Source of the DNA: a bacterium
GTDB taxonomy: Bacteria > UBA8248
Length of the DNA stretch: 64,000 nucleotides
Assembly: GCA_965221165.1 (NCBI GenBank)
Contig: CBDCRP010000003.1
Location: 928,001 to 992,000 of the forward strand
Direction: 5' to 3'
The position numbers and the translations under genes were made by a program. Within the stretch, counting starts at the first letter, position 1. Each line of letters begins with the position of its first letter. Of the stretch, positions 1,512-22,784 are shown one piece after another. Under the pieces are notes generated by a model. That model had not been told where the DNA came from. It worked only from the letters and a program-made list of their open reading frames with translations, and made no database searches.

Positions 1512-3287
1512 GTGAACATGAGCGATATCGACCTGAGCACGGACCCGCAATACCGAACCGAGAAACGAGACGGCTTTCTTATCGAATGGGACGTCCCCAT
1601 CCGGATGGAAGACGGCCTGGTGCTGCGGTCGAACGTCTACCGGCCCGATGACGACGGACAATACCCCGTCATCCTGAGTTACGGCCCCTATGCGAAGGAC
1701 CTGGCATGGCAGGACGGCTACGAGACGGCGTGGGAGCTTTTCGCCACCGCGCATCCGGACGCCATCGCGGGTTCCTCGAACGTCCACCAGAGCTGGGAGG
1801 TCGTGGACCCCGAGAAATGGGTGCCGGACGGCTACATCTGCGTGCGCGTGGATTCGCGCGGCGCGGGCCGCTCGCCGGGCTATATCGACCACTTCTCCCC
1901 GCGCGAGACCAAGGATTTCGCCATCTGCATCGAATGGGCGGGCGAACAACCCTGGTGCAACGGCAAGGTGGGCCTCACGGGAATCTCCTATTACGCCATC
2001 AACCAGTGGCAAGTGGCGGGCCTGCAGCCCAAATGTCTCGAAGCCATGTGCGTCTGGGAGGGAGCGGCGGATTTCTACCGCGACATGAGCCACCAGGGCG
2101 GCATGCTCACGACGTTTCTGGCCAACTGGTACGACATGCAGGTCAAAAGCGTGCAGCACGGCCTGGGGGAAAACGGCCCGAAAAGCCGCGTCCACGGCGG
2201 CCTCGCCTGCGGCCCCGAGACCTTGAGCGAAGAGGAGATGGAGAAAAACCGCTCCGACTACGGGGGCGACATTCTGGAGCGTCCGCTCGATGGCGAGTGG
2301 TACCAGGATCGCTCCGCGCATTGGGAGAAGATAAAAACGCCCTTCATCTCGGCGGCGAGCTGGGGCGGACAGGGCTTACACCCGAGGGGGAACTACGAGG
2401 GCTTCATGCGGGCGGCGTCCACGGAAAAATGGCTGGAAGTCCACGGCTTCGAGCACTGGACGGAGTTTTATACTCCCTACGGGGAAAAGCTCCAGAAACA
2501 GTTTTTCGGCCATTACCTGAAGGGCGAGAACACCGGCTGGATGGAGAAGCCCCCCGTCATGCTCAAGGTGCGCCACGTCGGGGAAAAATTCGTCGAGCGC
2601 GGCGAGAACGAATGGCCCCTCGCCCGCACGCAGTGGACGAAGTTCTATCTGGACCCGGCCCACATGAACCTGGGTTCCGCGCCCATCGAGGGCGAGCAAA
2701 GCATCACCTACGCGGGAATGAGCGACGGCGTGACCTTCATGCTGCCGCCCTTTGAGGAAGAAACCGAGATAACGGGCCCCATCGCCTCCAAGCTCTTCGT
2801 CTCCTCAGAAGCCGCGGATGCGGACATGTTCCTGGTCTTGCGCCTGTTCACGCCCGACATGAAGGAGATTACCTTCCAGGGCACGCTCGACCCGAACACC
2901 CCCATCGCGCAGGGTTGGCTGAGAGCCTCGCAGAGAAAGCTCGTGCCCGAGCTATCGACCGAATGGAAGCCCTACCAAGCGCATGATGAGAAACAATACC
3001 TGAACCCCGGCGAGATATATGAACTGGACATCGAGGTCTGGCCCACCTGCATCGTTGTGCCTCCCGGCTACCGGCTGGCTTTGAGCGTGCGCGGCAAGGA
3101 TTATGAGTACAGTTGCGTCACCACGCACAAACTCTCGAACATGAAGAACGTGTTCCGGGGCTGCGGACCGTTCTTACACGACGACCCCACGGACAGGCCC
3201 GAGGAGATTTTTGGGAAGAACGTGACGCTCCACTGCGGACCCGAACACGCCTCTTACATCATGCTGCCCGTGGTGCCGGAGAAGTAG
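1512..3287 (+). CDS. CocE/NonD family serine hydrolase
   Basis: DVPIRMEDGLVLRSNVYRP, YGPY, GISYYA motifs; GAGG RBS upstream. Confidence 0.92.
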   Translation: MNMSDIDLSTDPQYRTEKRDGFLIEWDVPIRMEDGLVLRSNVYRPDDDGQYPVILSYGPYAKDLAWQDGYETAWELFATAHPDAIAGSSNVHQSWEVVDPEKWVPDGYICVRVDSRGAGRSPGYIDHFSPRETKDFAICIEWAGEQPWCNGKVGLTGISYYAINQWQVAGLQPKCLEAMCVWEGAADFYRDMSHQGGMLTTFLANWYDMQVKSVQHGLGENGPKSRVHGGLACGPETLSEEEMEKNRSDYGGDILERPLDGEWYQDRSAHWEKIKTPFISAASWGGQGLHPRGNYEGFMRAASTEKWLEVHGFEHWTEFYTPYGEKLQKQFFGHYLKGENTGWMEKPPVMLKVRHVGEKFVERGENEWPLARTQWTKFYLDPAHMNLGSAPIEGEQSITYAGMSDGVTFMLPPFEEETEITGPIASKLFVSSEAADADMFLVLRLFTPDMKEITFQGTLDPNTPIAQGWLRASQRKLVPELSTEWKPYQAHDEKQYLNPGEIYELDIEVWPTCIVVPPGYRLALSVRGKDYEYSCVTTHKLSNMKNVFRGCGPFLHDDPTDRPEEIFGKNVTLHCGPEHASYIMLPVVPEK

Positions 3288-6841: not shown

Positions 6842-6896
6842 CCTCGCCTCGATTTGTAGCGCGCTGATTGTTCGAGCAGTATAGTTTTTCTGAAGT

Positions 6897-7058
6897 GCTG
6901 CAGGGGGGCTTTCCTCAGGAAAGCCCGGGAAGCCGGTGAGAATCCGGCGCGGACCCGCCACTGTAACCGGGGACGAAAGCGGCCGAAACCACCGGCGTAA
7001 GGCGCCGGGAAGGGGTCGTGAGTAGGTGGATCCGGAAGCCAGGAGACCGCCCTGCGGC
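6897..7058 (+). promoter_or_regulatory. Cobalamin riboswitch 1
   Basis: GGGAA-GCCGGTGAGAATCCGGC, CCCGCCACTGTAA, GGGAAGG, AGCCAGGAGACC B12 box; P1 GCTGCAGGG/CCCTGCGGC. Confidence 0.92.
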
Positions 7059-7218
7059 AACCTTTTGACCCGTCACGTCCTCGCGGAACGGGAGATGGGT
7101 GGCATCTTGCGCATCATCACACCCGAAATCGACGGCACTACAGCACGCGCGAGTATCACGCACGCGCTGCGTTAAAGTTTTCGCCATAGGAGCGGTGGAC
7201 CCGTCCGCCGCCAAAACA

Positions 7219-7362
7219 GCCGGCAGGTGTTCGGGAATCCGGTGTAAGACCGGAGCTGCCCGGCAGCTGTAAGCGACGCGCTTTTCATAATATCCACCGG
7301 GACACCCCCGGGAAGGAATGAAGAGCGGCCATCGGCGCGAGCCAGAAGACCGGCCTGTCGGC
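7219..7362 (+). promoter_or_regulatory. Cobalamin riboswitch 2
   Basis: AGGTG, GGGAATCCGGTGTAAGACCGG, GCAGCTGTAA, GGGAAGG, GAGCCAGAAGACC; P1 GCCGGCAGG/CCTGTCGGC. Confidence 0.88.
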
Positions 7363-7425
7363 ATCTCCCCTGCGACCCTCCGGGGTCGGTTTCGAGCGCT
7401 TGGGCCGCTCAAGGAGTGTAATCCC

Positions 7426-18260: not shown

Positions 18261-18335
18261 ACAAAGCCGGGCGTGATAGGGTGGGGCTACATACACCAAC
18301 GAAAAAATCTACAAACGCCAACCCCGGAGCGCGCC

Positions 18336-19361
18336 ATGAACGAGATGGATGAATTCGAATTTTTTCTGGAAAAACCCTGGTCCGACGGCTTCCCCGTGGT
18401 CACGCCCACCGAGGAGCGCATCGAGCGCATGCTCACGGGAACGAAGAGACCGCCCGATGAGGCGCTCTGCAAAGTCCCGCCGCTCGATGAGGTCGCCACC
18501 GTGCGGAGCGTCGCCGTCCACGCCGTCATGGCGGGGTGCAGACCCGAATACCTACCCGTCGTCATCGCGGCTTTGGAGCTCATCGTGGAAGAGGCGCTCA
18601 ACCTGCGCGGCGTGCAGGCCACCATGCACAGCGTAGCGCCCCTGCTCATCGTGAACGGCCCCTATGGGAAACGCATCGGGGTAACGGGCGGGCAGGGTTG
18701 TTTCGGCCCCGGCTTTCGGGCGAACGCCACCATCGGCCGCGCGGTGAGGCTCCTGCTGCTCAACCTGGGCGGCGGCGTGGCGCGCGTGGCCTGCATGAGC
18801 ATCTACAGCCAGCCGTCTCGCTTCACGTTCTGCATAGCCGAGAATGAGGACGAAGGCCCCTGGGAGTCGCTGGCCGTATCGCGGGGATACGGCCCGGATG
18901 AGGACGTCATCACCGCCGTCATGGTGGAAAACCCCCACATCGTCTTCAACGACGTGGACCGCGACCCCAAGCGCCTCCTCGTCTCCCACATGGACAACAT
19001 GGCGGCGATGGGTTCGTGGCCCATCTGGGTGAGGTCCGACACCGTGCTCATCCTCTCGCCCGAACACGCCCGCCTGTGCGAGCGGGCCGGGTTCTCGCGC
19101 GCGGACGTGCACGCATATGTTTGTGAGAACGCGGGGCGCACCGTGGGGGAACTCAAGCGCGGCGGCCCCTGGAGGGAGGATAAGCCGAACGGGCGGTGGA
19201 CCTATCCGGTGGACAGGGAGGATGATGATTTCTTCATCCGCGTCGTGAACGAACCGGAAGACCTACACCTCATCGTCGCAGGCGGCAACGGGCCGCTCGG
19301 CGCGGTGATGCCCGGCTGGAACGGCGCGAGCCGGGCGGTGCACCGGGCGTATACGCCGTAG
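18336..19361 (+). CDS. Conserved hypothetical protein (SDGFPVVTPT family)
   Basis: WSDGFPVVTPT, AVMAGCRPEYLPV, GPGFRANATIGRA, AENE..PW motifs. Confidence 0.8.
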   Translation: MNEMDEFEFFLEKPWSDGFPVVTPTEERIERMLTGTKRPPDEALCKVPPLDEVATVRSVAVHAVMAGCRPEYLPVVIAALELIVEEALNLRGVQATMHSVAPLLIVNGPYGKRIGVTGGQGCFGPGFRANATIGRAVRLLLLNLGGGVARVACMSIYSQPSRFTFCIAENEDEGPWESLAVSRGYGPDEDVITAVMVENPHIVFNDVDRDPKRLLVSHMDNMAAMGSWPIWVRSDTVLILSPEHARLCERAGFSRADVHAYVCENAGRTVGELKRGGPWREDKPNGRWTYPVDREDDDFFIRVVNEPEDLHLIVAGGNGPLGAVMPGWNGASRAVHRAYTP

Positions 19362-19590
19362 GGGCAATTCCGACCGAAGAGAGAGGGATTGCTCAGGAAA
19401 CACCGTCATTCCGGTGTCATTCTCGCCCGATGAGGAAGAGAATGCGGAATCCGGGGAATTTGCTTTTGCATCTTTTGCCGCGATTTCCACCTCCTCGTAG
19501 AGGAAAAGAAATACCACAATAGTTTCACCCTCCCCGGTTCCGGCCAACCTTTCGGTTGCCACCCGCATGCGCCGGAATGACGAGGATAAA
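19360..19590. repeat. Repeat element, inverted copy of about 17490-17630
   Basis: GGCCAACCTTTCGGTTGCCACCCGCATGCGCCGGAATGAC is the near reverse complement of about 17491-17530. Confidence 0.75.
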
Positions 19591-19783
19591 AACACGCTCG
19601 AATCAAGAAACCACCCCTCCCTGAAGTCAGTTCCCTCTTTTCACTCCCTCTTGAGACACATTTCCGACCGTAGCAGGGGCACCTATAGAAAACGCATTTC
19701 CTCCTCTCATCGCTCGAAACAGCAGTCTTCCCCTCCTCGGGGAAGACTGACCTTTCACTCAAAATGGATGAAAAAATCATTCC

Positions 19784-19813
19784 TTGACAAACCCAAAAAA
19801 GCTATCGCAAGAT
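19784..19813 (+). promoter_or_regulatory. Sigma70-like promoter, copy 1
   Basis: TTGACA-18 nt-CAAGAT. Confidence 0.55.
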
Positions 19814-19913
19814 GTACATTGCGATGCAATCCACGAGGTGAAGAGGCTTCGGCTGTTCGCCAACCACGAGGCGATCTTCTTCTGGAAGGTCGAAAATCGG
19901 CGAGAAATTCACC

Positions 19914-19943
19914 TTGACAAAATGCAAAAAGCTGTAGCAATAT
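19914..19943 (+). promoter_or_regulatory. Sigma70-like promoter, copy 2
   Basis: TTGACA-18 nt-CAATAT; predicted start at about 19948-19950 coincides with the 5' end of a long stem. Confidence 0.6.
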
Positions 19944-19947
19944 CAGA

Positions 19948-20501
19948 GTTGCGACACAGATCCATGAGGTGCAGTCGATTTCGGGCTGCTCGCTGAATAC
20001 AACACGTCTTTCTTCTTGAAGGACGGAATAGGCGAGAACCCACCTCAAGAACCTATACCTCGTGGATTGTGTCGCAACCAGCCCGGACTGCGTGTCCGCA
20101 AGGTTGCCGGCCCCGGTGCTGCCCAAAGACTCACAAGTGGTTTTGTTGCGGCCCGTATAGATACACAAGGTAAGAAGGTTAATCGTAGAAAACCGGAAAT
20201 ATGCTGAAAAATCCCTTTTTCTACTCCGGGTTCGCAGCAGCAGGCGCCTTCGGCGTGAGAGGCGGCACGGGTGACGCCGCCATGAGCCTCATCGGCGCTT
20301 ACAAACAGTAGAGCAAGACGCCTTGCCTTGGCTCTTGGGTTTTATATACGACGCCCGGGGAGAAGGCGGACAAATAAAGAAGAGTAAAGGGGGCTGCTCA
20401 TTGGTTGCTTCCCTCGTGATTGAGCAAACTGTACCGCTCCTTGCTTAGAGTTTGAGTCCTCGAGCCGGGAACGGGAACAATGGGCAACCCCCGCTTTTTT
20501 T
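19948..20501 (+). ncRNA. Candidate large structured non-coding RNA (about 550 nt), family unrecognised
   Basis: Promoter upstream; about 22-bp stem 19948-19970/20057-20078; further hairpins; possible pseudoknot; terminal stem 20389-20403/20478-20492 followed by T7; no credible CDS. Confidence 0.55.
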
Positions 20502-20533
20502 ATAACGCGCTTTGGCGACGCCTGGCAATTCCG

Positions 20534-20623
20534 AAAAAGGGGCTATCCCCTCCCCGTTTTTGACTGGAATCAAGAATGTTCGCCGAGAGGTGAATCGGGA
20601 GAGGGGGCGAGCCCTTTTTTTTT
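20534..20623. terminator. Branched, bidirectional terminator-like structure
   Basis: AAAAAGGGGCT..CCCCTCCCCG / CGGGAGAGGGG..AGCCCTTTTTTTTT enclosing two small hairpins. Confidence 0.6.
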
Positions 20624-20699
20624 GCGTAGCGGCGTTTTACTTCTCCCGTTCCCTCCCTTCTCGACCCGAGCAGTACCTCCTTCATCAGTCGGCAATGAC

Positions 20700-20945
20700 C
20701 ACCGCCTTTGATCGTCATTCCGGCGCATGCCGGTGGCAACCGCAAGGTTGACCAGGGGTTAACCTGTTGCCTTTATCCTGCGATATCTTCGGTGCAAATC
20801 TGTCGGGCGGCATATATGCCGCCCCTACGAAACGAATCGCTTCTCTCCCGATCATCCGTAGGTGGCGGTCCCTCCCTTTCCGGTCGGCAAACCCTCCCGC
20901 ATTGGTCGGCAAACCCTCGCTCCTCGCTCGGGTTTGACCCTCCCG
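20700..20945. repeat. REP-like repeat cluster
   Basis: GTCATTCCGGCGCATGCCGGTGGCAACC, GGGCGGCATATATGCCGCCCCTAC, tandem GGTCGGCAAACCCTC. Confidence 0.75.
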
Positions 20946-20989
20946 AATCCGGCTTGGATCCACCAAGAAAACGGGGGCGCATTTCCGCG

Positions 20990-21177
20990 CATTTGGCGTT
21001 ACCGCGCAGGCCCGGGCGTGTGGCAAGGTGTCGCCCGCCGGGCGAAACGCCGGCGCATAAGTGAAAATGTCTGAAAAAAGGGGGAAAAAGGGGGAAATAT
21101 CTGAAAATAAGTGAAAATTTATCTCGTTGATAAATAAGGGGTTTCAGTGATTTCCCCACGTATGGCGGCCTATGGGA
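20990..21177 (+). repeat. Dispersed repeat with 10-bp phased GAAAA tracts, copy 1
   Basis: AAGTGAAAAT GTCTGAAAAA AGGGGGAAAA AGGGGGAAAT ATCTGAAAAT AAGTGAAAAT then TTGATAAATAAGGGGTT; diverged copy at about 50291-50478. Confidence 0.7.
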
Positions 21178-22784
21178 CGCTCCCGGGCCATAAATGTTTT
21201 TTCGGCCATTTTCACGAAAATGTTGACCCGCCAGCGCGCGTCGTCGGCTTCGGGGCAATCCGCCCGGTAGTGCGCGCCCCGGCTCTCGGTTCTGAGCAGC
21301 GCGGCCTCCACCACCGCCTGTGCGCTCAGGCACATGTTCTCCGCCTCGACGGCCTCGAGCAGGCGGGCGGGTGCGCTCCCCCCACACGAAGCCAGAGCGC
21401 CCTGGATATCCCCGAGCGCGCCCCGCGCCTCTTCGAGCGGGCCCTCCTCGCGCACGATGCCCGCCTTCTCCCAGCAGAGCCTCTTGAGCTTGCGGACCAA
21501 GTCCACCGCGCGATTCGGCCTGCCCGCGCGCTCCGAGAGCGCAACCGCGTGGGCCTTCGCGAGCGCAGGACCCGGCGTCGCGCATTCTGAGCTTCGCGCA
21601 AGCTCGCTTGCGGCCTTCCCCGCGCGCCAGCCCAGCGTATGGGCCTCGGTGAAGGCGTTGTTCGAGAGGCGGTTCGCCCCGTGCGCACCCGCGCTCACCT
21701 CGCCCGCCGCGTAGAGGCCCGGCATGGCCGTCGCTCCCTCGCCGTCAATCGGCACCCCGCCCATGAAGAAGTGGGCCTTGGGCGAGACGTAGATATCGCT
21801 GCCGTGGGGCGAAACGCCCCTCCTGGCGAAGAGCTTGAGATTGTCGGGGGCGAAATGCTCCAGATCCTCCACCGAGATGCCGGATAAATCCATCTGCACG
21901 GCGCCATCCACCCCGCCGCCACGCATGAGTTCGAGATAGACCGCCCGCGCCATCAGGTCGCGCGTGGCGTCGCCGCCGCCTGGCACGTCGCGCATGATGT
22001 CCTCCCCGTCCCGGTTCAGGAACCGCGCACCGAGCGGGAACAGCGTGGGCGCCACCACCATGTTGCTCTCGGGCCGCTTGATGACGGCCGGGTAGAACTG
22101 AACGAACTCCATATCGGAGAGCGCAAGGCCCGCCCTCAGCGCCATCGCGAAGCCGTCTCCCGTGATGCCGCCCGCATTCGTGTTCTCCGCAAAAATCTGC
22201 CCCGCGCCGCCCGTGGCCAGTATGGTGGCGCCTGCGCGTATGGCGTACACCTCGCCGCTCCTCGTGTGAAAACCCATGACGCCCCCGCAGACCCCATCAT
22301 CCACGAGCAAATCGACGGTCATGACGTTTTCGAGAATACGGGCGGCGTCTGCGTCGAGTTTCTTGCGCAGCGGCCTCGCCACCTCCACGCCCCAGTTCTT
22401 GATCGGGTAAATTCCGCGGTCTTGTCTGTGGCCGCCCTGGGGGTGTAAGTCGAACGACCCGTCCTCGCGCGTGATGAAGGGAATCCCCCAGTCGTAAAGA
22501 TCGCGTATGCGAGCGGCGGAATCCGCGCACATGGCATGGGCGACGGCGGGGTGATTGAGGCGTGCGCCTCCCTCCAGGGTATCTTCCAGGAACAAAGCCG
22601 CGCTGTCATCGGGCGCGAAATTCGCCGAATGTCCCGCGCGGGCCATGACGATATTGCCCGAACTCCCGGGAGATTGCTTGCAGACCAAAAGCGCGTCCGC
22701 GCCGCTCTCCATCGCGGCGATGGCCGCCGTCATGGCGGCGGGGCCGCCGCCCAGGATCAATACGTCGCAGGAGAGATTCTGCAC
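21144..22784 (-). CDS. FAD-dependent oxidoreductase, L-aspartate oxidase/SdhA-FrdA family
   Basis: LGGGPAA, LATGG, MEFVQFYP, HFFMGG, HGANRLSNN, RTESRGAH. Confidence 0.88.
   Translation of the reverse strand: MQNLSCDVLILGGGPAAMTAAIAAMESGADALLVCKQSPGSSGNIVMARAGHSANFAPDDSAALFLEDTLEGGARLNHPAVAHAMCADSAARIRDLYDWGIPFITREDGSFDLHPQGGHRQDRGIYPIKNWGVEVARPLRKKLDADAARILENVMTVDLLVDDGVCGGVMGFHTRSGEVYAIRAGATILATGGAGQIFAENTNAGGITGDGFAMALRAGLALSDMEFVQFYPAVIKRPESNMVVAPTLFPLGARFLNRDGEDIMRDVPGGGDATRDLMARAVYLELMRGGGVDGAVQMDLSGISVEDLEHFAPDNLKLFARRGVSPHGSDIYVSPKAHFFMGGVPIDGEGATAMPGLYAAGEVSAGAHGANRLSNNAFTEAHTLGWRAGKAASELARSSECATPGPALAKAHAVALSERAGRPNRAVDLVRKLKRLCWEKAGIVREEGPLEEARGALGDIQGALASCGGSAPARLLEAVEAENMCLSAQAVVEAALLRTESRGAHYRADCPEADDARWRVNIFVKMAEKTFMARERPIGRHTWGNH

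Follow-up and report, generated by a model that had tools for sequence, protein, structure and literature searches.

The flagged part of the window (the whole stretch of 64,000 nucleotides that was analysed) contains a conserved, folded leader RNA twice, once in full and once shortened; each copy has a promoter-like site of its own, and a single closing arm is common to both. We assign a probability of about 50% to the reading that the plus strand here encodes a structured 5' leader RNA from an uncatalogued family resembling sRNA-Xcc1, in which a conserved loop would act as a binding site, a pseudoknot would exert control, and the choice of promoter would select the 5' arm.

The original prediction had described two diverged tandem units. 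An alignment of 19782-19911 with 19912-20046 bears this out with 92 invariant columns among 136, as does a direct repeat of 43 nt returned by a repeat search at 19782 and 19912 (72% identity, spacing 130); the same search found a second direct repeat, 19826-19841 versus 19859-19874, at 81%. The stems, hairpins, arms, TTGACA hexamers and ACCTC motifs that had been named in both units were all located, displaced by 1-2 nt at most, the two ACCTC occurrences lying at 20042-20046 and 20057-20061. That the 8-bp hairpin keeps pairing while its sequence changes could likewise be read off both units, with the same three pair changes (A-U to U-A, U-G to C-G and C-G to U-G). As the tandem architecture recurs in 9 further species and the family has dozens of copies, the duplication is more than a product of chance. 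The notion of two equivalent modules held only in part: both units are present, but unit 2 represents a full copy of the family and unit 1 a 3'-truncated one. The boundary originally drawn for unit 2 was also too narrow, for the 3' arm and the downstream CAGCCCG strand belong to it as well, and the pseudoknot had been missed.

The full copy, a member of a family of pseudoknotted RNAs of approximately 140 nt, occupies 19948-20086 on the plus strand and is made up of unit 2, the 3' arm and, directly behind it, CAGCCCG. Its terminal helix P1 is formed by a 5' strand at 19948-19969, which is also the second 5' arm, and the G/U-rich shared 3' arm at 20058-20078, a segment that is nearly invariant in 10 species. 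Inside P1, the P2 stem pairs GAGGTG (19966-19971) with CACCTC (20041-20046), and the core at 19989-20036 contains the P3 stem (CTCGCT, 19989-19994, with GGCGAG, 20031-20036), the P4 hairpin of 8 bp (20005-20012 with 20018-20025) and a conserved loop made up of GAATACAACA at 19995-20004 and GAATA at 20026-20030. The pseudoknot is formed between CGGGCTG at 19982-19988 and CAGCCCG at 20079-20085, the latter being part of the 3' strand CAGCCCGG (20079-20086) and situated directly downstream of P1.

As evidenced by an alignment of 32 sequences, this fold of 33 pairs is maintained in 95.7% of the cells, compared with 31-43% when the pairing is slid, and 22 of the 33 pairs show compensatory changes. 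The pairing is kept in this alignment, which is far wider than the two units; together with compensatory changes in 5 of the 20 pairs of unit 1, it lends strong support to the predicted selection on RNA structure. Across the family, 14 of the 15 pairs of P1 have changed in a compensatory manner, while P3 and P4 are paired in 97.4% and 94.3% of the cells, respectively. The 7 pairs of the pseudoknot are formed in 97.3% of the cells, with compensatory changes in 3 of them. Note that this helix was absent from the model that produced the alignment, and that its strands were also recovered as an inverted repeat in the repeat search. The letters of the core loop are conserved throughout the 32 aligned copies, which derive from several phyla, so that the family unites a structured domain, covariation and invariant unpaired nucleotides in the way that is used to recognise RNAs of the riboswitch type. 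Family models score the window copy with 115-118 bits and the reverse strand with 18 bits, versus 115 for the plus strand, to which the RNA is assigned because of its many G-U pairs.

Unit 1 (19784-19913), a derivative truncated at its 3' end, is without the conserved loop of the family. In an alignment of 10 species its body, 19837-19913, folds into a P2' stem (GGTGAA, 19837-19842, with TTCACC, 19908-19913), a P3' stem (TTCGCC, 19856-19861, with GGCGAG, 19899-19904) and an 8-bp P4' hairpin (19872-19879 with 19885-19892). Where the family has its core loop, unit 1 carries a conserved CCACGAGG at 19864-19871, which the repeat search identified as a repeat of part of the first 5' arm. Pairing is retained in 96.0% of the cells (29-50% when slid). 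A local hairpin of TCGCC with GGCGA would fit the data equally well in place of the distal P3' stem, but this hairpin shows no compensatory change. With the family covariance model R1 the unit reaches only 12.4 bits (E 0.9), and it is kept together with its own promoter-like site in all 10 species.

The two promoter-like sites, both on the plus strand, combine TTGACA at 19784-19789 with CAAGAT at 19808-19813 and TTGACA at 19914-19919 with CAATAT at 19938-19943. In both, the -35 hexamer is exact, the spacer measures 18 nt, where sigma-70-type promoters have 16-18 nt, and the -10 hexamer has 3 of 6 consensus matches. A sigma-70 scan of 19000-21200 in which at least 4 of 6 matches were required in each hexamer listed no promoter, so that the -10 elements have to be regarded as weak by this consensus. 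TTGACA of site 1 does not vary among the 10 orthologous loci, where conservation begins at that very hexamer, and neither does TTGACA of site 2, which in all 10 species keeps a constant distance of 128-131 nt from site 1; the closest relative of this genome has TTGGCA at site 1. Other copies of the family possess a TTGACA at an equal distance upstream of P1, and in all copies inspected P1 begins a few bases from the predicted start site. The 5' end of the full copy coincides with the start predicted from site 2 or lies no more than a few bases from it, and the arrangement suggests that transcription may proceed from either site.

The claim that either 5' arm can pair with the single 3' arm was substantiated by the predicted duplexes. 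Arm 1 (19819-19839) forms a 21-nt inverted repeat with 20057-20077 that is 90% complementary, and the calculated duplex energies with the 3' arm are -35.7 kcal/mol for arm 1 and -35.3 kcal/mol for arm 2. For 200 shuffles per arm, the mean was near -12 kcal/mol (-11.9 for arm 1) and the best values were -24.7 and -20.2 kcal/mol. In all 10 species, both 5' arms have preserved their complementarity to the single 3' arm. In a nested thermodynamic fold of the long transcript the 3' arm is predicted to engage arm 1 in 8 of the 10 species and arm 2 in the other 2, a preference that is to be taken as a prediction. Tandem arrangements of riboswitches or aptamers are comparable in that a single leader there, as here, carries two related structured modules one after the other. 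They differ from the present locus in that its upstream module is devoid of the conserved loop and of a 3' arm of its own, has its own promoter-like site and shares its closing strand with the downstream module. Such a truncated module, kept in 10 species while it uses the closing strand of the full one, constitutes a natural test case for folds that depend on the start site.

In the mechanism that we favour, P1 would enclose the P2/P3/P4 domain, and the strictly conserved internal loop of this domain, with GAAUA on both strands and CAANAC, would bind a small molecule or a factor. Formation of the pseudoknot, between CGGGCUG and the CAGCCCG directly after P1, would then stand against pairing of its 3' strand with sequence downstream, and the balance would decide the fate of the following mRNA, which in most family copies encodes exported or surface proteins. 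A transcript initiated at the upstream site would in addition contain the truncated unit 1 and a further 5' arm, able to close the 3' arm around both modules, and promoter choice would in this manner select the arm that closes P1 and decide if arm 2 stays free. For the window, a local fold provides a candidate competitor for the 5' strand of the pseudoknot: CAGCCCGG can alternatively pair with CCGGTGCTG at 20113-20121 over 7 of 7 nt, a value reached by 2 of 100 shuffles. Most of the 10 aligned loci carry the corresponding motif, CCGG(C/T)GCTG, and a role of CCGGTGCTG as competitor is possible from this predicted pairing.

A search of the genome for further copies, as had been proposed, yielded 4 full copies with the covariance model. 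Within the uncultured genus, 20 of 22 other genomes hold between 1 and 17 copies each, in the phylum a match was obtained in 24 of 51 genomes, and copies were present in 5 of 5 tested metagenome-assembled genomes labelled Acidobacteriota or Paracoccaceae. At other loci, full copies in tandem are found approximately 55-215 nt apart. A scan of 19300-20900 against Rfam 15 returned no family at E<=10, and none was assigned to the locus at gathering cut-offs; no entry of Rfam 15 can be recognised as this family, whose structure is well supported.

The nearest known RNA is sRNA-Xcc1 (RF02221, 88 nt) from Xanthomonas campestris. This model gave no match in 19300-20900 of the window at E<=10, and in the whole genome it hit two other places only, with 18.3 and 16.4 bits, and no copy of the family. 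The distant relatives L083, L090 and L080 score 30.4, 30.0 and 27.9 bits with it, relative to a gathering cut-off of 53 bits, and the cmscan alignments of these three members match the inner stem, the loop AAUACAANAC, the short hairpin and GGAAUA. The helix of the GGCCGG/CCGGCC type in sRNA-Xcc1 corresponds to the pseudoknot described here. Such an Xcc1-type core, composed of the AAUACAANAC loop, a hairpin, GGAAUA and a G/C-rich enclosing helix, is present in unit 2 (19982-20036 with 20079-20085) and absent from unit 1, where the loop is CCACGAGG. Both RNAs further occur in multiple copies and in tandem: PMC12189769 reports a Xylella genome with 7 copies of sRNA-Xcc1, of which 5 are spaced by approximately 380 bp, and bioRxiv 10.1101/2025.06.18.660453 places this RNA upstream of symE in integron cassettes. 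The family described here differs from sRNA-Xcc1 in its terminal helix P1 of 15-21 bp, which crosses the Xcc1-type helix and thereby creates the pseudoknot, in its position ahead of genes for exported proteins, and, at the window locus, in the two promoter-like sites that are served by one 3' arm; sRNA-Xcc1, moreover, has been described in print as a trans-acting sRNA. By this comparison sRNA-Xcc1, itself poorly understood, may be read as the core of a leader element. A more far-reaching version would have the family as an undescribed riboswitch-like class that senses a signal and controls genes for exported and surface proteins in several phyla, with sRNA-Xcc1 as its minimal form. The window locus would then be a novel type of tandem arrangement that converts promoter choice into an RNA fold: the two promoters would provide alternative 5' arms for one 3' arm, and the long transcript would enclose a sensor-less decoy together with the sensor in one helix and respond differently from the short one. 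We consider this extended version improbable as a whole.

Most copies are followed at approximately 12-450 nt by an open reading frame on the same strand with a ribosome-binding site. In a sample of 20 loci from two genomes, the first such frame of at least 60 aa was signal-peptide- or lipoprotein-like in 14 cases. Pfam matches among the downstream products comprise Sel1 repeats, a 17-kDa surface antigen, GH113 and DUF4875, and one copy in the same genome lies upstream of a Bac_transf sugar transferase gene. The genes preceded by the family thus encode secreted proteins, lipoproteins and surface proteins, which suggests a common layer of control for the cell surface. What these genes have in common is export signals and not a pathway, and this argues against a metabolite riboswitch. 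A sensor for c-di-GMP was also considered and discarded, as there was no match to GEMM-I and a single match to GGDEF in the genome.

The same contexts might be explained by a generic cassette for expression and stability, in which a strong -35 element drives high production of surface proteins and the 5'-terminal helix guards the mRNA from decay that depends on the 5' end, with no signal being sensed. The ompA leader of E. coli protects its mRNA in this way. The start of P1 close to the predicted transcription start, the fact that the 5' end of either predicted isoform would be paired in a helix to one common 3' arm, and the exported or surface proteins encoded downstream would all suit such a cassette, but a simple stabiliser would need neither an invariant loop nor a pseudoknot that persists across phyla, and we hold this explanation to be quite unlikely.

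The loci revealed no uniform expression platform with respect to downstream pairing, ribosome-site exposure or terminator-like sites. On average over 29 loci, the 3' strand of the pseudoknot paired with 4.97 nt downstream versus 4.21 nt in shuffled controls, a slight excess that is not significant; alternative hairpins that use the CCCGG of this strand are clear in some cases, for example L080, L055, L066 and the window. When the strand was held unpaired, shifts above 0.1 in the predicted exposure of the ribosome site were confined to 6 of 20 loci, upwards in 2 and downwards in 4, with the strand mislocated in one locus (L131). Of 36 loci, 13 have terminator-like sites within 200 nt, and several of these sites lie in coding sequence; in the window there is no clear terminator directly after the structure.

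A further mode of action would be self-targeting after the manner of the c4 antisense RNA of phages P1 and P7, where one arm of P1, masked by the other, would pair with the ribosome-binding region of its own gene. As in c4, a structured RNA opens a transcript that it might regulate, and several related segments can pair mutually; in one paralogue, L002, the region of the putative ribosome-binding site and ATG shares 10 nt with the 3' arm and complements the 5' arm. In 23 non-redundant loci, however, the arms paired no better with their own 330 nt downstream than did the arms of other loci, with ranks from 1 to 23. The P1 arms follow a general C/A-rich and G/U-rich pattern rather than a locus-specific one, and Rfam C4 was not matched in 12 loci (E<=1) or in the window region (E<=10). 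With own-locus duplex energies no better than those across loci, c4-type self-targeting by the P1 arms was rejected, and we regard any mechanism of this kind as very improbable.

The window locus itself has no conserved open reading frame downstream of the RNA, and neither has its closest relative. A frame of 36 aa at 20201-20311 was dismissed as a gene, having no Pfam match and no conservation in the closest relative or other orthologues. Lacking a downstream gene, the locus is an orphan in both genomes, and the RNA is here either a retained free RNA or a recent orphan. The RNA of unit 2 is 96% identical between the two, versus 45-77% in the flanking intergenic DNA. This degree of conservation in a place without a gene would fit stand-alone genes for trans-acting small RNAs, in which the two promoter-like sites would drive one or two RNAs that act on other mRNAs by base pairing, like the 88-nt sRNA-Xcc1 seen on Northern blots, the gene contexts elsewhere being incidental or a matter of dual use. 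The likeness of the core to RF02221 points in the same direction, as does the detection of sRNA-Xcc1 as a discrete RNA of approximately 100 nt with mapped ends (PMC2996969). We nevertheless think a small RNA of this type unlikely, since most copies are followed by a same-strand frame with a ribosome-binding site, no conserved single-stranded seed is evident, with the best-conserved unpaired letters located in the internal loop, and the structure in the window is not directly followed by a clear terminator.

The orphan state could also mark a functionless remnant, a lipoprotein-gene leader whose gene and third unit were deleted in an ancestor shared with the closest relative. A third, degenerate unit is found downstream in the 8 more distant aligned loci, in one of which, L120 (one genome examined), it is followed by a lipoprotein-like frame; both this unit and the frame are missing from the window and from the closest relative. 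The latter also has the aberrant TTGGCA at site 1, one mismatch in P3 and one in the 3' arm, as decay would predict. Loss of function is hard to reconcile with the identity of 96% between both genomes, with a compensatory double change from U-A to C-G in P4 between the window and the closest relative, and with the 115-118 bits that the window copy still reaches on the family models, and a mere remnant seems to us quite unlikely. Further downstream, at 20376-20500 on the plus strand, lies an interspersed repeat of approximately 115 bp that forms a long hairpin with a run of T behind it (z-score -3.25 versus shuffles); it is present in many copies in 17 of the 22 other genomes of the genus, and may possibly serve as the end of transcripts from this locus.

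More copies were sought in the window's own genome, as the original prediction had proposed, and with the region as query two further partial matches were found. Both lie behind a TTGACA and have the layout of the full module of the window (unit 2, 19948-20086): a long 5' arm, the motif CGGGCTG, a stem with the loop GAATACAAGAC, a variable hairpin, GGAATAGGCGGGAA, a 3' arm that complements the 5' one, and CAGCCCG. A covariance model built from 14 copies of the genus (R1) recovered copies from Acidobacteriota and Paracoccaceae at 41-75 bits, and its 32 full-length matches with E<=1e-6 were aligned (A5) and used to build a second model, R2. In A5 the terminal helix P1, the pseudoknot of CGGGCTG with CAGCCCG and the inner stems P3 and P4 are paired in 95.7% of 1050 cells, a count that for P1, P3 and P4 leans towards structure because A5 was fitted to them, as compared to 30.9-42.6% for slid 3' partners as a control. 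Compensatory changes on both sides occur in 22 of the 33 pairs, and none of 500 shuffles reached any of five measures. The pseudoknot, absent from the model behind A5, is 97.3% paired, with compensatory changes in three of its seven pairs. The selection on RNA structure first suggested by the hairpins of the window is thus borne out, and the structure is real. Because of the many G-U pairs and a reverse-strand score of only 18 bits versus 115 bits forward, the RNA was assigned to the plus strand.

Within the window, the two diverged tandem units originally described share 92 invariant columns of 136 in a unit-to-unit alignment, and their stems, as well as the three pair changes in the 8-bp hairpin, were found as stated. 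A repeat search retrieved a direct repeat of 43 nt with copies at 19782 and 19912 (spacing 130, 72% identity), the predicted inverted repeat of 21 nt between arm 1, the first 5' arm, and the 3' arm (19819-19839/20057-20077, 90% complementary), and an additional one at 19982-19993/20074-20085 that had been missed. Two promoter-like sites with exact -35 hexamers lie on the plus strand, TTGACA at 19784-19789 and at 19914-19919, followed after 18 nt by CAAGAT and CAATAT, respectively; a sigma-70 scan of 19000-21200 that required at least 4 of 6 matches per hexamer returned no promoter. The upstream, truncated unit 1 (19784-19913) scores 12.4 bits against R1 and reaches 37.2 bits in one relative. 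It lacks the family loop and instead carries a near-invariant CCACGAGG, which duplicates a portion of arm 1 (direct repeat of 19826-19841 at 19859-19874, 81%) and is complementary to the beginning of the 3' arm.

The same tandem arrangement is present in nine other species, in the order TTGACA, arm 1, unit 1, TTGACA, arm 2, full module, 3' arm and pseudoknot strand, with 128-131 nt between the two TTGACA hexamers and conservation setting in at the first of them. Unit 1 retains counterparts of the inner stems, P2', P3' and P4', with 96.0% of cells paired versus 29-50% when slid and compensatory changes in 5 of 20 pairs. The proposal that both 5' arms can pair with the single 3' arm (19819-19839 and 19948-19969 with 20058-20078 in the window) holds in 10 of 10 species, with predicted duplex energies between -31 and -38 kcal/mol as compared to means of -11.5 to -14.9 kcal/mol for shuffled arms. 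Deviations from the perfect complement are mostly G-U compatible; arm 2 has a single internal mismatch in most species, and one locus (L085) has mismatches in both arms. In nested folds, which ignore the pseudoknot and co-transcriptional folding, the 3' arm of the long predicted transcript pairs with arm 1 in eight of the ten species and with arm 2 in two, and the short predicted transcript uses arm 2. The competing-arm design is conserved, and the original interpretation is supported in part, with use of the two promoters and a switch between the arms as its putative elements. Between the window and its closest relative, identity is 96% in the unit 2 RNA, 94% in promoter-like site 2, 89% in unit 1 and 45-77% in the flanking intergenic DNA. 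P4 differs between the two by a double change, U-A to C-G, and the relative has TTGGCA at site 1 and one mismatch each in P3 and the 3' arm.

Rfam 15 yielded no family at E<=10 for the window locus. Three distant family members match RF02221 (sRNA-Xcc1) at 27.9-30.4 bits, below the cut-off of 53 bits, and their alignments equate the outer stem of RF02221 with the pseudoknot helix of the present family; the loop AAUACAANAC, a hairpin and GGAAUA are common to both. A search of the window's genome with RF02221 did not match the family copies. With its distant members below the cut-off and the copies of this genome unmatched, the family is therefore treated as a distant, extended relative of sRNA-Xcc1 rather than a member. 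sRNA-Xcc1 is described as an 88-nt RNA detected on Northern blots (PMC2996969); it is reported to precede symE in Xanthomonas integron cassettes (bioRxiv 10.1101/2025.06.18.660453), and a Xylella genome to hold seven copies, five in tandem (PMC12189769). Among the papers listed by a single full-text search on sRNA-Xcc1, titles and abstract openings contain no description of the extended leader family, which does not in itself prove it unpublished. The element in the window is a leader RNA of an extended Xcc1-like type, unusual in its putative two-promoter arrangement with a shared arm. Two other readings were considered: c4-like self-targeting, with an arm directed at the RNA's own ribosome-binding region, was not supported, and neither was a c-di-GMP sensor.

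BLAST over the GTDB family gave matches in 20 of 42 genomes, including the window's own, all within its genus (19 of 22 other genomes); the 0 of 19 genomes in the other eight genera denotes for this method only that there is no close similarity. With R2 the window's genome has four full copies, 20 of the 22 other genomes of the genus have 1-17 copies each, and across the phylum 24 of 51 genomes, again including the window's, match at E<=0.001. Beyond the genus, one genome matched in each of three genera of the phylum and none in the remaining ones; this search applied stricter filters, and in an incomplete genome a missing match need not mean absence. When one genome per species was scanned for the motif, 56 loci were obtained, mostly in MAGs with the labels 'bacterium', 'Nitrospinota bacterium' or 'uncultured Nitrospinaceae bacterium', with several in Vicinamibacterales, Terriglobia or Acidobacteriota MAGs and one in a Paracoccaceae MAG. 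Seven loci (L040, L042, L067, L082, L084, L092 and L094) look like chance motif matches, and none matches R1 at E<=1. The five tested genomes outside the genus hold 1-4 copies each, four identical ones in G051, and IS1595- or IS1-type transposase genes adjoin four of five examined outside loci (L146-L149; genomes G052-G055). Note that in two genomes, G017 and G018, R2 matches many stretches of about 110 nt (e.g. L132), in part with the same score (42.8-50.7 bits), pointing to a repeated element with a shortened motif.

For gene context, two genomes of the genus were studied, with 20 loci in all. At 14 of them the first downstream ORF (at least 60 aa, with a ribosome-binding-like site) has a hydrophobic, signal-peptide-like start; by eye, several show a cysteine and then a glycine run soon after the hydrophobic stretch, resembling lipoprotein signals, and a scripted lipobox pattern matched 2 of 20. 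A Pfam scan of 17 of these ORFs named Sel1 repeats (two), 17-kDa surface antigen/glycine zipper, GH113 and DUF4875, with weaker matches to AAA_16 and DUF5678, and gave no family for ten. Outside the genus, downstream ORFs likewise encode small membrane or exported proteins, or a protein with a start that we take to resemble a family 25 glycosyltransferase. Behind one copy in the window's genome come a short ORF rich in His and a sugar transferase (Bac_transf), adjoined by a Wzy_C gene. Between leader and Bac_transf-type gene, either such a short His-rich ORF (13-19 codons) or a stretch of conserved RNA is present at L003 (1385-1450, minus strand) and downstream of the leaders at L030, L032, L037 and L038. 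The pseudoknotted fold is conserved and sits at the very 5' end of the predicted transcripts, its internal loop is invariant, and it is positioned before genes for exported proteins; from this we infer a cis-acting leader that would sense a ligand or factor at the loop. At several loci (e.g. L080, L055 and L066) a strong hairpin further downstream also takes in CCCGG from the 3' strand of the pseudoknot, and in the window this strand could, in a predicted local fold, pair instead with CCGGTGCTG (20113-20121). Over all loci, pairing of this strand with downstream sequence exceeds that of shuffles only slightly (mean 4.97 versus 4.21 nt, 29 loci), keeping it unpaired shifts the predicted exposure of the ribosome site by more than 0.1 at 6 of 20 loci (2 up, 4 down), and 13 of 36 loci have terminator-like sites within 200 nt. 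The readout may differ from copy to copy.

In eight more distant aligned loci (L039, L049, L051, L052, L061, L065, L072 and L079) a third, degenerate unit lies downstream, at a distance of about 170 nt from unit 2. It has 5' and 3' arms of its own, lacks the GAAUACAA loop and scores 14-24 bits against R1, and its 5' arm is a further possible partner for the unit 2 3' arm. At L120, in the single genome examined for this, the third unit is followed by a lipoprotein-like ORF. The window and its closest relative have neither the unit nor such a gene, and the leader has lost its downstream gene in the window's genome. The 36-aa ORF at 20201-20311 is not conserved in the closest relative or the aligned orthologous loci. 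Upstream, a 362-aa ORF (18273-19361, plus strand) is conserved in relatives and has no Pfam family; at the orthologous locus L033 it is inverted with respect to the window, and a phage-type integrase (Arm-DNA-bind_3, Phage_integrase; 2118-3110, plus strand) lies downstream. Instead, the tandem locus leads, in both the window and the closest relative, to an interspersed repeat about 115 bp long (20376-20497, plus strand) that folds as a long imperfect hairpin (z -3.25) with a run of T behind it. Many copies of this repeat, at 75-93% identity, are present in 17 of the 22 other genus genomes; possibly it is a mobile, terminator-like element. A further repeat of 43-53 bp flanks the RNA locus in inverted copies (20703-20755, plus strand, and 19542-19583, minus strand) and occurs in dozens of copies in the window's genome and its relatives. 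Elsewhere in the window, tandem cobalamin riboswitch aptamers are found at 6885-7069 and 7208-7372 on the plus strand (114.5 and 90.6 bits).
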